Below, one piece after another: positions 33,431 through 43,219 of a DNA stretch of 64,000 bases; position 1 is the stretch's first letter, and the number at the start of each line of letters is the position of its first letter. Both the position numbers and the translations under genes were made by a program. The DNA is from Malacoraja senta. Taxonomy: Eukaryota. The notes under the pieces were generated by a model. It was not told the DNA's origin. It worked only from the letters and a program-made list of their open reading frames with translations, and did not search any database. The DNA lies in contig CM075988.1 in the NCBI GenBank assembly GCA_038087875.1, positions 20,028,001 to 20,092,000 of the forward strand, written 5' to 3'.

Positions 33431-33889
33431 TGTACATTCTTAAAGATTCAATATCCACTCTCTTTCATGGATACAGAATTTCTAAAGATCACAATCCTTT
33501 ATGAGTGTAGCGGCCGATTTTTATATCGTTCGAGAAATTAACACTCTCACCGCTAAATGGATGAGCATGGTTAAGGGGAATATCTTCGAAACGCATGCGA
33601 GCTCACCCACAGAGACCTTCAGAGCTTCTTCACAGATAAGTCTTCAAACACAGTCTTTTGATCAATAAGTTCTTTATTATTGATGAAAACAATAAAGTAC
33701 ATCCAAACTTCTTCCGACTCGTTACTATAATCTTCATCGAACTCCAGCTTATTACTTTAAACTTTAGAAAACTCCTCGTGTCTCCGTTACACTTCGCATG
33801 ATCTCCTTTACACCTCGCATGTTCGAAGGGTAAACCTTCTCCATGGTCTCTCCAATCTACACTAAAAACTAAACTAAACTAGACTTCTG

Positions 33890-36762
33890 ACGGGCACCCG
33901 AAAAAAGGACCACATCACCCCGATTCTGGCCTCTCTCCACTGGCTCCCTGTGCGGTTCCGAATAAATTTCAAGATCCTTCTTTATGTTTACAAAGCCTTT
34001 AACGGGCTTGCCCCCACCTACATCAAAAGTCTGCTTACCCACCACACCACCTCCAGGTCCCTCAGATCAGCCGACTTGGGGTTACTGAACATCCTAGGCA
34101 TAAGCTCAGGGACGACGGCGCCTTTGCGGTTGCAGCTCCTAGACTGTGGAACAGCATCCCTCTTCCCATCAGAACTGCCCCCTCCATTGACTCTTTTAAG
34201 TCGAGACTTAAAACTCATCTTTACTCACAAGCCCTTTTTGACGTCCTCTGAGGGAGGGCTATATCAAGTCAAGTCAAGTGAGTTTATTGTCATGTGTCCC
34301 TGATAGGACAATGAAATTCTTGCTTTGCTTCACAACAGAACATAGTAGGCATTGACTACAAGGCATTCTATAAATATATACACACATGAATCAATGTACT
34401 GATAAAGTGCAAATAACAGTATTGGCTAATAAAGTTCAGTGTTATGTCCGAGCCAGGTTTAATAGCCTGATGGCTGTGGGAAGTAGCTATTCCTGAACCT
34501 GGTCGTTGCAGTCTTCAGGCTCCTGTACCTTCTACCTGAAGGTAGTAGGGAGATGAGTGTGTGGCCAGGATGGTGTGGGTCCTTGATGATACTGCCAGCC
34601 TTTTTGAGGCAGCGACTGTGATAGATCCCCTCGATGGAAGGGAGGTCAGAGCCGATGATGGACTGGGCAGTGTTTACTACTTTTTGTAGTCTTTTCCTCT
34701 CCAGGGCGCTCAAGTTGCCGAACCAAGCCACGATGCAACCGGTCAGCATGCTCTCTACTGTGCACCTGTAGAAGTTAGAGAGAGTCCTCCTTGACAAACC
34801 GACTCTCCATAATCTTCTCAGGAAGTAGAGGCGCTGATGTGCTTTCTTAATAATGGCATCAGTGTTCTCGGACCAGGAAAGATCTTCAGAGATGTGCACG
34901 CCCAGGAATTTGAAGCTCTTGACCCTTTCAACCATCGACCCGTTGATATAAACGGGACTGTGGGTCCCCATCCTACTCCTTCCAAAGTCCACAATCAGTT
35001 CCTTGGTTTTGCTGGTGTTGAGGGCCAGGTTATTGTGCTGGCACCATATGGACAGTTGCTCGATCTCTCTTCTATACTCTGACTCATCCCCATCAGTGAT
35101 ACGTCCCACAACAGTGGTGTCATCAGCGAACTTGATGATGGAGTTCGCACTATGTCCGGCTACGCAGTCATGAGTATAGAGTGAGTACAGCAGGGGGCTG
35201 AGCACGCAGCCTTGAGGTGCTCCCGTGCTGATTGTTATCGAGTCTGACACATTTCCACCAATATGAACAGACTGTGGTCTGAGAGTGAGGAAGTCGAGGA
35301 TCCAATTGCAGAGGGATGCGCAGAGACCCAGTTCTGCGAGTTTGGTAACCAGCTTGGAGGGGATGATTGTATTAAATGTCGAGCTGTAATCGATGAATAA
35401 CAGCCTGACATATGAGTTTTTGTTGTCCAAGTGGTCCAGAGCGGAGTGGAGGGCCAGCGAGATCGCATCCACCGTTGATCTGTTGTGGCGGTAAGCGAAC
35501 TGCAGTGGGTCCAGGTTTTTGTCGAGGTAGGAATTGATCTGCGTCATGATCAACCTCTCAAAGCACTTCATCACCACAGGCGTTAGTGCCACAGGTCGAT
35601 AGTCATTGAGGCATGTCACCTTACTCTTCTTGGGCACTGGTATAATTGATGCCCTTTTGAAGCAGGTGGGAACCTCAGACCTCAGAAGTGAGAGGTTGAA
35701 AATGTCCGTAAAAACTCCAGCCAATTGGTCCGCACAGGTTTTTAGAACACGACCAGGTATACCATCAGGTCCAGGCGCTTTTCGAGGGTTCACCCCTCTG
35801 AAGGATTTCCTGACATCGGCCTCTGTGACTGAGACTGAAATACCATCACAGCAAATGGGGGCTCGGGAAGGCACATCGGTGTTCTCCCTATCAAAGCGTG
35901 CGTAGAACGCATTGAGCTCATCAGGGAGTGATGTTTCGCCGACATTCGAGCTGCCTCCTAATTTCGACTTGTAAGAGGTGATTGCATTCACGCCCTGCCA
36001 CAGCCGCCGAACATCTGTCTCTTCCTCCAGTTTGGAGCAGAAGTCCCTTTTGGCCTTTTTGATGGCATTACCAAGGTCGTATCTGGACTTCTTGTAGGCC
36101 ACTGTATCATCAGACATGAATGCCCGGTGTCTGGACTTCAGAAGAGTGCGGATCTCAAAGTTCATCCAAGGTTTCTGATTGGGAAACGCTCGGAAGGTTT
36201 TGGTGGGGATGCAGTCCTCCACACACTTCTTAATGAAGTCTGTAACGACTGTGGCGTATTCGTTCAGGTCTGTTGCCGAGTCCTTGAACATTGCCCAGTC
36301 TACAGACTCCAAACAGTCCTGGAGTTGTTCCTCTGCCCCCCCCCCCCCCCCCGACCAGCTCTGTACTGTCCTCACCTCTGGGGGCGCGCTCTTTAATTGC
36401 TGTCTGTAGGCAGGAAGAAGCAGCACCGCGGTATGGTCGGATTTACCAAAGTGAGGGCGAGGGATAGAGCGATAGGCATTCTTGATGGTGGTGTAGCAGT
36501 GGTCGAGGGTGTTTGGTCCTCTGGTGCAGCAGGAGACATGTTGGTGGAAGTTAGGGAGTGATTTCTTTAGGTTTGCCTTAATGTAGTCCCCGGCTATGGT
36601 GGTGAACGCCTCGGGGTAAGACGTCTGGTGTTTGTTTGTATGTATTTATGTACGTACTTAATCTATGAACCAATGTTGTATAATGTAAGTACCTCCACCA
36701 ATGTAAAGCACTTTGGTCAACGGCGTTGTTTTTTAAATGTGCTACAGAAATAAAAGTGACTT
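33890..36762 (+). mobile_element. 5'-truncated L2-type LINE inserted in the BEL 3' LTR, itself split by Rex1
   Basis: ORF2 C-terminus HITPILASLHWLPVRFRINFKILL; 3' tail at 36633-36762; TSD GACTTCTG at 33882-33889 and 36763-36770. Confidence 0.82.
34264..36632 (-). mobile_element. Rex1/Babar-clade LINE, 5'-truncated, with an uninterrupted 655-aa RT ORF (34459-36426)
   Basis: FPNQKPW, LDPLQFAYR, GAPQGCVLSPLLY, FADD, KKAHQRLYFLR motifs; (CTTGA)n tail. Confidence 0.88.
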
Positions 36763-37017
36763 GACTTCTGCTCAAGCTACATAGCCCCAAACACGCCCAA
36801 AAATACGTCATAAATCCCAACCAAAATATAACGGGTAGTCTAAAATTTAAAGGCACATGCCATCATCAATGACATGCAAAACAAGCCAAATGGCCACTAC
36901 ATACCGGCCCATAATTGTTCCGAGTATATAATGAGGCAATTACTAATAAACATCAAAAAAGTAGCCATGAAGGCTTAACATATATCAAAAAGCAAAAGGT
37001 CAGGGAATTGAACCCCG

Positions 37018-37149: not shown

Positions 37150-40100
37150 CACTTTCGCCTTCTAGCAAGCATAACTAGGTTATTAATCTTATTAAAACAC
37201 TGGTTTTAGTTCAAAGTCGTACCGTGTGCACCAAACCCTTAAAATCAGGCATGATACCCAATATATAGTCCAAAACATAATAGTCCAAAGCTTTGATAGC
37301 ATGAAACGTCTTCCTCCATGTCCGATCACCTCATGAATGTGTGGTAACAGCAATGTTGAAGTGTGAAAATCCTTCAAAAGAATAACAGGATCTTAAGCAA
37401 TAAAGTTCACTGTTAGGTTTGATTTAATGTCCGGATCATTAGCAGAGATTTCAAATCCCAGCTCAAGCTTTGGCCATTCTCTGCCTGGCTTACAGAGAGA
37501 TTTTAGTTCTTTGATCCATCTCTTCTCGCTTAAGTAACAGTTCACTGTCAGTTCTCTGGAAACTTCATTTGCAGGATTTTCTTCTGTGTTAACATATTTC
37601 AGTTGTACAACATTAGTAACTCCCAATGCTCTTTCCATTGCCAGATCGACTTTGTCCAAATCCAACTCTCTGGTTTCTTTGGTTCTATCATCTAGTGGAA
37701 TGCTTTCACAATTGTCACTGTTCCACTTGGAAAGTGTGAATCTTCCCTTATTGCAAAGAGAAGTCAGATGTTCTACTGGTTGAATTGCTTCCTGCTCAGT
37801 AGACATGGATTTTAAGCAATCATCCTTGTAGAAATTATTCTTCAAAGAGATTCTTACTTCATGAAATTTAGTATTCTCATCAAACTTGCGTTTCAAAGTC
37901 TGGGTACGTTGCTCTGTCTTACGACGATTATTCGGCAGACTAACACTTTCTTGTTTGAAAGGTAAGTCCACACAATAGTGTCCGTCAGTTTTCACTGAGT
38001 AGTTCATAATATCCATGAACTTCAACTCTTCATTCGACATCTCTTCAGATTCCTTGCTGGTACTTTCCTTGAAATCGTGATTGTATGGCTTCATCACCGG
38101 CTTTTCTAATTTATCAGTAGATATTTGATTAACAGCAATGATAGGATAGTTCTTCTGATTCCTGTTTTCGTGGTTCCTTTTCAAGGAGCCATAAATAACC
38201 CATCCAAGTCGGGTTTTCGTAGGATACGGTCCATCACCTTGGATCCTAACAATCTGTATAGGTTCCAATGCCTTCAAAACATTTGTTCCGATCAGTAGAT
38301 CAACAGTCGAATTTATTTCAGATAACTTGACATCCTTCAGGTAAAGCCATTGTTTCAAGTCTTCATGTCTTGGTATATTTTGATGACCAACAGGCATAGT
38401 TCCATGTGTAAACACGTCAGATATTGGTATGAAATTATCTTCGTCCAAACTGGATATCTCCATACTCGTAATGTAATGACTCATGCTCTCTTTATCTTTA
38501 GTCATGGTACGTAATCGAATCTTAGTCTCTTCTGTGATGTTCAGCCTTCTCGTCAGGTTTTCTGTACAAAAGGTAATCAAACTTCCGTGATGCAGAAAAG
38601 CATGTGTTTGCAACACTGTATTCGTCTTGCTATTCCTTACCTGTACTGGTAAGATAGAAAAATTACAAGCTTCAACCCCGGCCCCAATATGAGCAGTTAC
38701 TTGAGGCAAGGTGATAGCATCACTAGTAGTTGGCTTCTCCTTCTTTTCTGTTTGCTCTGGTTCATCTTCTTCTATTTGCTCTGATAGCTCATCATCCGTT
38801 TGTTCCAGTTCTTCTTCCCAATACTCTGGTAGCTCTTCTTCAGCGTGAAGTGCTTCAGGATGATATTGCCTGCACTTATAACAAATCATAGGACTCTTAC
38901 AGTCTCTCACCATATGTTCTTTTTTCAAACATCCAAAACCGATTCCCTTCTCTTTCAGGAAATCTATCTTGTCTTTATATTCTTTCATCTTGAATCTTCG
39001 ACACCATCTTATGGTGCGACCAACTTCATCACATAACAAACAAAATACTATTTGCTTGCTAGTAGAGACATTTATTTTCATTCCATCTGTCTTTTCCACA
39101 GGTCTGGTTGTGATAGCAAAACTACTTCTCATAGGTTCTGAACTTTCTTCAGTTTCAGTAAAGGTAGAACCTTTGTTAGTTGCAATCGGTTTGTAATCTT
39201 CAATCGTCCCGTAGTGTGGCTCTAACATGTACCATACTTCCCTGTCCAAGAATTTCACCAGGTCTGGTAGCCTGGCTACTTGGTTCTTCTCATCTCTTAT
39301 TTTGCCTGCTTCGTCTCTCCACTTTTCTCTCAGTCTTCTGGGCAACTTGCTATTGATGATTCTAGTATTACTTGCATGATTCATTTCCTCCATGTGGACG
39401 AGATTTCTCATCGAGCTGCAAAAAATCTCTCAGAAATATTGCATAATCACTCAATGCTTCCACATCTTCCGGCTTGATTCCTTTCCAAGCATACATGGGC
39501 CTTCTCCATGTATGCGTTAGTTAGCAAGTCTCTGTTCATCACCAAAACGTTCTTTAAGTAATCTTCTCGCCTTTTTATAGCCTTGCTCTTTCTGACAACT
39601 TTCTACAAGTACTTTAACACTTCCACTTGTGTACTTCACCAGAATTCGTAAGCGCTCTTTTTCATCCGTAACTTTTGTTTCTAATACTTCCTCTAATGCC
39701 CTTACAAAAGCTACATACTGCAAAGGATCTCCACCATACGTAGAAATTTCTACTGGTGGTAGGATGAGAGAAGTATTTTGTCGAGCTATCAATTCGGTTT
39801 GATTTTTCACCAATGCCATTAACCCATCCTGATAACCTTGGCTTGGCTCCACCTGTTGATAAACAAGCCTCTGTGATTCAAATTGGCTTGCTCGAGCCTG
39901 TGCACCAGTCCTCGAAAAAGCGTGGTCCGCTATTGGTTTATCTCGAGCATCCACAGATGCTCCAATAGTAGTTGGTTTCGATCTAGCACTCATTTGCTGA
40001 GATGGTTTCATTCATCTTCCTCTGTTCCAATGGGTTTTCAAAGCCTAGAAATCCGATGGACCTCGATTGTGAAATTGATCCAACTGCTAATTCAATTAGA

Positions 40101-41600
40101 GCAGTTTTTCTTCTTGGTCCTGAGCTCATTGTCTTCGATGATCTAGAGCTGCATCTTGACCCCTCACTTTTCAGTAGCTCCTCCTTTGCTTTGGCCACCG
40201 CCATCTTTGTGTCCATTTCCAGTTGTTCCTTTCATCGCCTCAGCTTCTCTTGCTGTCGCGTCATCTCTTCTTGCTTATGTCGCATCTCTTCTTGCTGTCG
40301 CGTCATCTGTCACGTCATTTCTTCTTGTTCTCGCTTCATCTGTCGCGTCATCTCTTCTTGTTCTCGTGTCATCTGTCGCGTCATCTCTTGATCTCGCGTC
40401 ATCTATCGCGTCATCTCTTCTTGTTCTTCCTCAATCTCATGTTTCTTCTTCATGGCATCCGCCTCTATTGAGAGAGCAGCTAGCTCAGCTTTAACTCCCA
40501 ATCGAGCAGAAGCCCTTGATACCTAACTGGCTGAAGAATCAGATTTATGTCTTGAGCTATCTGAGCTGCTACGGCAGCCTCTGCTGCTGCTGTCGGCTTT
40601 TTTGGCCGCAGACTTTGCAGGCAGTGAAGAAGTCGTGGCCTTTGCCATTCGTAGTTGGGCTACGGGGGTCTTCAACTGAGGCACTTCGTCGCTTGAAGAT
40701 TCTTCAGTACTTTCAGAATCGGACTCGCTATCCGAGCTGGTACCAGCCTCCTTGGCCGCAGGCTTCTGAGTGGCAGCAGCCGCCTTGGCCAGCGTGGGGC
40801 CAGCTTTCGTCTGTGCAATTGTTGTGGCAGATTTTAGGGGTGCGTCTTCATCACTACTGTCTGAGCTGTCATCTGACAAGTCACAGATTTCCATTTCACT
40901 TACTCCTGCGTCTAGTTTCTTCTTGGTCACGCCTGCTTTTCCATTCTGAACTTTGGGAGATGGTACAGCACTATACAAACCTTGTGCTTTGGGTTTCGCA
41001 GGGGACTCATCATCTGAACCGTCAGACTCTTCACTGCTTGAACTTTGAACTTCTATTCTGGCACCTTCCAGCTACTAAGCTCGTAAGTTGTGACATAATT
41101 TCAGAAAACCACTTCTCTGCCTTTTTCATGAAACCAGTGAATATCTTCTTCTTGTCTTCAACCCACTGGGTGTGTCTTCTGCGTTCTTCCCAAGACGGCT
41201 CTGAACACAGCAGTACATCTTGTTTCTTGCCAACCTCCTGGCAGAGGTTCAATAGTTGGCTCATATTAGATTTCACTTTGATCACGTTCTGTTCTGATTC
41301 TATTCGTTTCTTCTGTTTCTCAATTAATCTGGTAACCTGTTTCCACAATTCGTTACTCTCCTTCTCGGTTTCTCTAATGCTGGTAGTATGTGTATTATCT
41401 GTTTCTTCTCGATACACAAGTTTTCTGTAGCTATCAATGGATTCGTTAACTGGTTCCCATATTGAGTTTTCCTCTTTCTTAGTTTCTTTAAGTTGTCTAA
41501 TTGGTCTTTCATCACCATCTCATGGTTCATCTGGCGTGGCTCTTTTTTCTTCTTCTGGATCCATATTTTAAAGAGGTCTTGGCAGGTCGTCAAGTCTTTA
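37150..41600 (-). pseudogene. Degenerate BEL/Pao gag-pol (gag, zinc knuckles, protease, deleted RT/RNase H/integrase)
   Basis: ORF pieces 41324-41593, 41031-41417, 40523-40978, 39983-40216, 39517-40011, 37393-39411 and 37192-37377, separated by stops and frameshifts; protease motif reads FLHHGS (catalytic Asp lost). Confidence 0.88.
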
Positions 41601-42246: not shown

Positions 42247-42745
42247 TGAAGCAGCCGATTTTTATATCGTTCGAGAAATTATCCCTCTAGCCACTAAATG
42301 GATGAGCATGGTTAAGGGGAATATCTTTGAAACGGATGCGAGCTCACCCACAGAGACCTTCAGAGCTTCTTCACAGATAAATCTTCAAAACACAGTCTTT
42401 TGATTAATAAGTTCTTTATTGTTGATGAAAACAATAAGGTACATCCAAACTTCTTCCGACTCGTTACTATAATCGAACTCCAGCTTATTACATAAACATT
42501 AGAAAACTCCTCGTGTCTCCATTACACTTCGCATGATCTCCTTTACACCTCGCATCGTCGAAGGGTAAACCTTCTCCATACTCGCTCCAAACTAAACTAA
42601 AAACTAAACTTCTGCGCAAGCTACATAGCCCAAAACACGCCCAAAAATACGTCATGAATCCCACCCACAATATAACGGGTAGTCTACCATTTAAAGGCAC
42701 ATGCCATCATCAATGACATGCAAAACAAGCCAAATGGCCACGACA
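42247..42745 (-). repeat. 5' LTR of the BEL/Pao element (499 bp)
   Basis: Direct repeat of 33506-33889 plus 36771-36901. Confidence 0.9.
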
Positions 42746-43219
42746 ATGAGTAGAAAACTTCTCATTATCTTGGTATAAAATAGCAACTTTAGAGGCCCTT
42801 ACACTATGCATATGGCTCAATTTAAGGAATCCCATAGCAGGGGGAGCATCCTTCTATTTGTTACCTCCTCAAAATCATGTATATTACTAATATCTAAAGA
42901 AAGGAGATTCAGAGATCATTGTCCCAATCTGCTCATTGTCCCAATCTTTCTTCTTACCAACCCTCTCATTTTAGCACAATCTTTTGTTTTACTTTGTAAT
43001 ATTTTACAGAAGTATTGTCTAGGGTACAGATTGAATTCACTGCTATTATTCTTTCTACAAAATAAAGTGTGCCTACATCCTCTCATGAAATACTTTTGTA
43101 TTTGATCAATTTTCATACATTTAAACACATATCCTAAATGTGGTTCACATAACAAAATAATATTAATTCTAACATTTCACATTAGTTTTTTGCAAATGCA
43201 TAAATCTATCATATTTATA

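Follow-up and report, generated by a model that had tools for sequence, protein, structure and literature searches.

The gag gene of an LTR retrotransposon in the 64,000-nt window (the whole stretch of DNA that was analysed) carries a foreign segment which was very probably captured from NOLC1, the host gene for Nopp140. The earlier note had described an in-frame segment of ~170 codons, alternating acidic-Ser with basic blocks, in what it took for a BEL/Pao gag; our analysis confirmed this segment and corrected the bounds of the insert to 41044-40553. Template-switch capture of a NOLC1 mRNA, followed by spread as a tolerated in-frame passenger linker, is the explanation that we consider probable.

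The element holding this gag spans 42745-33506 (-) and has TG...CA LTRs and a 5-bp target-site duplication, with its 3' LTR split by a later LINE (Table 1). The Pao domain PF05380 is present in all 38 proteins hit by its downstream frame (best E 1e-201, 52% identity), and we therefore assign the element by homology to the BEL/Pao LTR retrotransposons. The window element also aligns to residues 291-940 and to four later stretches of the BEL polyprotein P0139, and no BEL family was matched when the frames of the window itself were scanned with Pfam. Within the 37396..39429 frame the pol remnants comprise a short RT, an RNase H flank and an integrase zinc finger, with no Pao RNase H and no integrase core. 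In the 728-codon frame of the LINE (36763-33876, minus strand), Pfam gives RVT_1 and then ALKBH8_N; a fragment of a related, broken LINE is found immediately beyond the element, at ~33380-32985. Two further parts of the element are repetitive: the coding sequence of the gag coiled coil (40440-40230) consists of variable tandem units of 21-33 nt, present in different numbers in different element copies, and the 5' UTR (42247-41960) contains degenerate tandem repeats of 65-130 nt. No tRNA primer site was obvious by eye after the LTR.

Table 1. Features of the element in the window
Feature	Coordinates	Strand	Remarks
5' target-site duplication, 5 bp	42746..42750	-	identical to 33501-33505
5' LTR, 499 bp, TG...CA ends	42247..42745	-	
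gag N-terminal helical region	41045..41564	-	stop at 41522; private 14-nt deletion at ~41067
Insert piece 1, very probably NOLC1-derived	40712..41044	-	two acidic-Ser tracts and start of third; motif at ~40981-40955
Insert piece 1, matching contigs	40712..41044	-	X4 record 9 (27 differences/227 nt), X5 records 16 and 17, X6 record 20
Insert piece 2, very probably NOLC1-derived	40553..40711	-	joined to piece 1 within acidic-Ser tract
Remaining gag: SARL/AExAAL helix, repeat coiled coil, capsid-like region	39430..40552	-	private stop 40525-40523; further breaks
678-codon open frame: zinc knuckles and protease region, fused to pol remnants	37396..39429	-	
3' LTR, first part	36764..36901	-	94.2% identity to 5' LTR over 138 nt
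Later LINE splitting the 3' LTR	33876..36763	-	728-codon open frame with RVT_1
3' LTR, second part	33506..33875	-	91.6% identity to 5' LTR over 371 nt
3' target-site duplication	33501..33505	-	

In the window copy, 41062-40526 (-) is an open frame of 179 residues with the sequence quoted in the earlier note. Matches to contigs and the comparison of anchors place the true insert at 41044-40553 (-), which comprises ~490 nt and 164 open codons. The insert has three acidic-Ser tracts alternating with K/A/P-rich spacers, and its 164-residue core (36 S, 27 D/E, 17 K, 24 A and 10 P) contains 14 S/T-x-x-D/E sites of the CK2-type consensus. Tracts, spacers and CK2 sites in this alternation are the features of the Nopp140 central repeat domain, as it is defined in the available text of PMC12951762. 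The 179-residue frame is in register with the SARLGVKAELAAL helix, save for the stop at 40525-40523. This TAG had been reported before and is real, and it is private to the window copy (0/29 other copies); the 1-nt frameshift reported at about 41065 is instead a 14-nt deletion at ~41067, also found only in the window copy, the bases being present in 28 of 29 other copies and lost in a larger deletion in the remaining one. The gag of the window copy is dead, as its frame changes once more and is also interrupted by stops at 41522, at 40405 and beyond.

That the segment is foreign to gag follows from relatives that lack it. Of the 309 candidates found with the upstream gag flank, the 30 best loci included 26 without the insert, and 24 of these had a plain short-linker junction. 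The distance between shared anchors was 51 nt in all 19 scored copies without the insert and 501 nt in 11 of the 17 scored copies with it, the other six measuring 481-500 nt. Approximately 490 nt have thus taken the place of ~14 gag codons, so that gag became longer by a net 150 codons, and the replaced codons cover the position of a DxIxPxDSxS motif seen in other BEL gags. In the eight of 38 BEL polyproteins in which both landmarks could be pattern-matched, the linker was always 23-29 residues long, and none of the 38 contained insert-like sequence (best E 0.037, without composition correction). A low-complexity linker native to gag, which would have undone the earlier proposal, is refuted by the empty-site relatives and by these short linkers. 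The replacement of part of an internal ORF by host sequence is also a feature of LTR-mediated retrocopies.

The insert matches at least 41 places in the genome, at 83-91% identity apart from itself (40 of 49 candidates scored), and all 29 other insert loci that were inspected lie in the same BEL/Pao element. In these siblings the upstream gag, the insert and the downstream helix are read in one frame, which together with the anchor distances shows that the insert is in frame in the family; the insert itself is free of stops and frameshifts in 10 of 27 copies. Insert-bearing copies are a minority, accounting for 6 of the 40 best family hits and ~42-49 of 309 candidates, or ~15% of the family.

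For the source of the insert we turned to public runs chosen for holding the NOLC1 3' end, of which 4 of 24 were compared with the insert and its gag flanks. The matching runs X4, X5 and X6 represent three other organisms, not the host; none of the runs is recorded as RNA, X4 being flagged as probably DNA, and X5 and X6 are RNA by guess only. Contigs from all three match only 41044-40553, at 86-96% identity, and continue as non-gag, low-complexity sequence at both junctions. Record 9 of X4, a 2193-nt contig with a depth of 567 (compared with 2-12 for the listed element pieces), matches 41044-40982, 40936-40710 (27 differences in 227 nt) and 40711-40581 (10 in 131), and in X5 and X6 there is no depth in the gag flanks. 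Beyond the 3' junction X5 continues as an E-rich tract and then KPKGK, like the mammalian NOLC1 P0016. No single contig among those listed was seen to join the SRP40_C exon to the matching part, though the runs contain both. Since 9 of the 27 listed differences between X4 and the window are private to the window copy or nearly so, the siblings are closer to the source than the window copy is.

At the protein level, the least repetitive stretch of the insert, G-x-Y-S-A-V-P-[PS]-P, occurs in 7 of 120 NOLC1-family proteins (from bird, lizard and snakes) and in 0 of 38 BEL polyproteins, and the insert aligns collinearly with amniote NOLC1 proteins. The motif and the nucleotide matches to NOLC1-type contigs of other organisms bear out the NOLC1-like source that had been proposed from composition, for which a lack of any nucleotide-level match to NOLC1 or TCOF1 would have been damaging. 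Protein shuffle tests were weak (z 1.5-6.5, or 0.1-4.3 with 5-residue blocks) and a BEL control reached z=3, so the source is not rested on them. Protein searches with the segment gave no hit among 7814 candidates, no usable Atlas hit and no Pfam family; two bacterial repeat-protein hits were judged compositional and unrelated. Transfer from the element to the host gene was rejected, the motif being present in amniote NOLC1 and the parent gag being without the segment.

The host's own NOLC1 is represented in the assembly by its last two exons only, on the 57-kb contig C5830 (G000:C5830:53660-56798, L031), which ends ~1.5 kb upstream of the last exon; the gene appears to be broken in the assembly. 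The insert has no match on C5830 near the NOLC1 3' end, the middle exons were not found in the assembly, and an N-terminal snake NOLC1 query of the assembly had no match. A pattern search of the genome with the motif gave 24 matches, all at known element copies, and no match was obtained, with two mismatches allowed, for a 30-nt pattern representing the sequence that precedes the 5' junction. As the middle exons of host NOLC1 were not found, the nucleotide match comes from other organisms rather than from the same genome, and exon junctions are viewed indirectly.

The insert consists of two pieces. At 40711 the matching contig skips 387 nt (X4) or 405 nt (X5), in both cases whole codons (129-135), and the protein alignment to amniote NOLC1 has a gap of ~125 columns at the same place. 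The internal join is common to the copies, as 40 scored hits match all or most of the stretch across it, and the skip therefore arose once, before amplification. Predicted snake NOLC1 isoforms skip an exon that starts at the Gly of the motif, and the insert crosses this point without an intron. If intron positions are shared among vertebrates, the template was probably a spliced mRNA. Of the spliced NOLC1 mRNA put forward in the earlier note, then, the absence of an intron at the snake isoform boundary stands as an indirect result, while the host exons that would show it directly were not found. Exon skipping may have produced the internal skip, but the join lies within a Ser tract and has an overlap, and the one X4 contig spanning it is mostly of element type. 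Possible microsimilarity amounts to only ~3-4 shared nt at the outer junctions and an overlap of 2-11 nt at the internal join. The one X4 contig that spans the join (depth 2.4) has element-type letters at 7 of 8 diagnostic places, a weak hint that an insert-bearing element may also be present in the X4 organism.

Selection was examined separately for residues and for the reading frame. For the residue counts, near-duplicate loci (L006, L016 and L028) were dropped from the 30. Singleton variants were near neutral in all regions (ratios 0.9-1.4). Among variants present in at least three insert copies, ratios were 0.55 for the capsid (p=0.015) and 0.53 for the zinc-knuckle/protease region (p=0.005); for the insert the ratio was 0.86 (15 synonymous and 34 non-synonymous; p=0.36), rising to 0.99 for variants present in at least four copies. 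Off-frame ratios for the insert were 1.25 and 0.87, compared with 0.84 in frame. Within the 27 X4 differences listed, element-wide differences comprised 10 non-synonymous and 8 synonymous changes. The insert residues are thus under no detectable residue-level purifying selection, in a test of limited power in which the N-terminal gag also appeared unconstrained (1.0-1.1). Disordered regions can work without sequence conservation.

Frameshifts gave another result. In 20 copies the insert had 12 private and no shared frameshifts and the N-terminal gag had 10 and none, compared with 38 private and 25 shared in the LTR and 5' UTR (Fisher p=0.005 for shared frameshifts in the insert against this non-coding control, in which repeats inflate shared indels). 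In the 27-copy set, two insert frameshifts were each common to a pair of copies, one pair being on the same contig. The frame of the insert seems to have mattered.

None of 41 copies (20 with the insert, 20 without it and the window copy) covers residues 1221-1396 or 1651-1945 of P0139, a full-length BEL in which these stretches hold most of Peptidase_A17 (1206-1369) and rve (1712-1799), respectively, some of the 41 being cut or interrupted within the 10 kb fetched. Whether or not they carry the insert, most of the copies extending into pol retain the same short remnants. By its predicted coding content, the family is non-autonomous, having no RNase H and no integrase core. Relatives with a Pao RNase H domain, ~71-87% identical to the pol remnants, are present in the genome and could have supplied the enzymes. 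As a separate observation, some 300 candidate copies with gag-protease under purifying selection and pol down to the same few remnants (39429-36901 in the window copy) make up a vertebrate gag-retaining, non-autonomous BEL/Pao family.

LTR-LTR identity was 88-97% in 12 of the 14 insert copies with a value, two disrupted copies falling below this range; among 20 insert-less copies, nine had identities of 86-97%. Because these identities overlap, copies with and without the insert were active over the same span, and both are now decayed. In trees from which rows with >30% gaps had been omitted (31 rows kept), a single clade of insert copies was rejected for the downstream backbone (p-AU 3e-6; 15 vs 16 rows; 7 changes), and the upstream flank of the window copy was closest to insert-less copies. 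For both reasons, we infer that a single capture was reshuffled among backbones by recombination.

The sequence of events that we propose for the template-switch capture is as follows. Abundant NOLC1 mRNA would have been co-packaged with element RNA and captured once, by template switching during reverse transcription, with the reverse transcriptase supplied in trans by a full-length relative. Three switches would suffice, namely from element to mRNA, from mRNA to mRNA where two Ser tracts are alike, and from mRNA back to element, a few shared bases being used at each. The product would by chance have been in frame at a flexible linker, and would have spread as a tolerated disordered linker; its residues could drift freely, but Gag needed an unbroken frame. 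Recombination with insert-less RNAs would then have carried the insert between backbones, and the element's own Gag may have favoured its own RNA in cis, such that frameshifted copies did not multiply.

The earlier note had gone further and suggested that the insert could steer the element to nucleoli or condensates. Stated in full, this reading holds that three phosphorylatable Nopp140 repeats gave Gag a condensate-forming ability, or targeting to nucleoli or Cajal bodies, that aided RNA packaging or maturation. It would account for the retention of the frame while copies spread and for the 14 CK2-type sites that remain, and it draws on published work: the available text of PMC2133063 has the Nopp140 repeat domain as needed for nucleolar and coiled-body targeting, that of PMC12951762 describes binding of NLS-rich disordered tails by three phosphorylated repeats and even by one, and the accessible part of bioRxiv 10.1101/2023.02.27.530227 reports that Ty1 Gag needs a disordered domain for which some foreign ones substitute. 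The targeting in the available text of PMC2133063 was, however, tested for the whole repeat domain only. Moreover, the insert residues show no selection (10 non-synonymous and 8 synonymous differences from X4), the LTR ages overlap those of insert-less copies, and the insert is confined to 6 of 40 best family hits and ~42-49 of 309 candidates. With no residue-level selection, the insert in a minority of copies and a family without RNase H or integrase core, steering to nucleoli or condensates is not supported, and we consider a functional module unlikely. It is likewise improbable that a vertebrate BEL/Pao lineage replicated for long with a chimeric Gag in which three borrowed phospho-repeats formed a condensate module and either directed particles or RNA to nucleoli or Cajal bodies or aided assembly; if true, this would be a natural experiment in which a host phase-separating domain was swapped into a retrotransposon capsid protein and kept by charge pattern rather than sequence.

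An effect at the RNA level would place the benefit elsewhere, in that small-RNA silencing of the element would also hit the mRNA of the essential host gene NOLC1 and would hence be restrained. The insert is still 86-96% identical to NOLC1-type contigs of related organisms, and in the available text of PMC13534243 such a decoy is proposed for Drosophila telomeric elements, and piRNAs against host genes are triggered by captured fragments at a median identity of ~90%. A decoy would work without an open frame, but here the frame was retained; further, eight of the nine captures in that text are of piRNA-pathway genes and capture goes with higher copy number, whereas insert copies are here the minority, and we regard this reading as distinctly unlikely. 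Still less likely is an origin at the DNA level, in which genomic NOLC1 or a processed pseudogene entered an integrated copy through repair or gene conversion and was then amplified. Such an origin would fit the missing host gene model, which leaves intron loss without direct view, and the shortness of the outer microsimilarity, but no intron is present where the insert passes over an amniote exon boundary, and with one SRP40_C match in the genome and all 24 motif matches at element copies no pseudogene donor is visible. Least probable of all is that the segment came from TCOF1 or another acidic/basic repeat gene, or was a native low-complexity linker of gag. Composition alone cannot separate these proteins, and the segment has no Pfam family; nevertheless the NOLC1 motif, the collinear NOLC1 alignment with its gap where the contigs have it, and the NOLC1-like continuation of X5 past the 3' junction stand against another source, as do the empty-site parent and the short linkers of other BEL gags against a native one. 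For TCOF1, which the earlier note had offered beside NOLC1, nothing was found in support: the Treacle repeat PF03546 had no match in the segment, in a weak test given that it had none in the whole genome either, where the model may not reach this lineage.

Captures of host sequence by retroelements have several precedents. In transducing retroviruses, gag-onc fusions usually truncate Gag and capture a folded signalling domain. The present case resembles them in having probably spliced host sequence fused in frame to gag within a helper-dependent genome, and differs in that a germline retrotransposon acquired a disordered repeat within a Gag that is otherwise complete. TR-GAG and other gag-retaining, non-autonomous plant LTR elements have LTRs and a maintained gag and are without working RT, RNase H or integrase; the family described here shares this organization, but is a vertebrate BEL/Pao family which also keeps the protease region and several pol remnants.

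The probable mechanism is that of known LTR-mediated retroposition, and what is unusual is an internal, in-frame Gag fusion that kept spreading. LTR-mediated retroposition in metazoans includes a Pao BATUMI chimera in Drosophila and a BEL18_AG retrocopy in mosquito (available text of PMC5131818). As in the retrocopies described there, host sequence, here probably from mRNA, replaces part of an internal ORF, more than two switches are possible and further rounds proceed as a non-autonomous element; the short sequence shared at their junctions may have a counterpart here. Unlike those retrocopies, as far as the available text goes, only ~14 gag codons were replaced here and gag-protease was left open, the insert is present in at least 41 places and moved between backbones, and its frame seems to have been under selection; a maintained Gag fusion of this kind is not described in that text. 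The captures of nxf2, piwi and aub by Drosophila telomeric LINEs (PMC13534243, available text) are similar in that a host fragment ~90% identical to its source is present in a multi-copy family. Those elements, in the same text, are LINEs with piRNA-pathway genes, an effect at the RNA level and a higher copy number, whereas the present case concerns an LTR element and a nucleolar housekeeping gene, in frame in Gag and in a minority of copies. Searches of open-licence PMC and bioRxiv articles turned up no description of a retroelement that had captured NOLC1.

The family thus provides a clean example, open to dissection, of how a vertebrate BEL/Pao element can capture a host gene, in which the empty-site parent, the junctions, a likely source transcript and ~40 descendants are all visible. 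BEL Gag accepts a net insert of 150 disordered residues ahead of its coiled coil, and from the history of the frame it seems that a family without pol continued to depend on its own gag frame, a point of relevance to the cis use of Gag by non-autonomous LTR elements. If the repeats did work as a condensate or nucleolar module, the capture would link Nopp140 biology to retrotransposon assembly.

Finally, in 7 of the 30 insert loci (L002, L004, L012, L014, L018, L026 and L029) the stretch of gag that follows the insert is repeated, and a second, diverged N-terminal helical region lies between the repeated stretches. The sequence I-A-[PL]-G-D-S-I-S, which is the conserved gag motif whose position the insert replaced, reappears in six of these seven loci, and the spacing of the repeat is a multiple of three in three of the seven. 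The repeat may be a recombination product that restored the motif.
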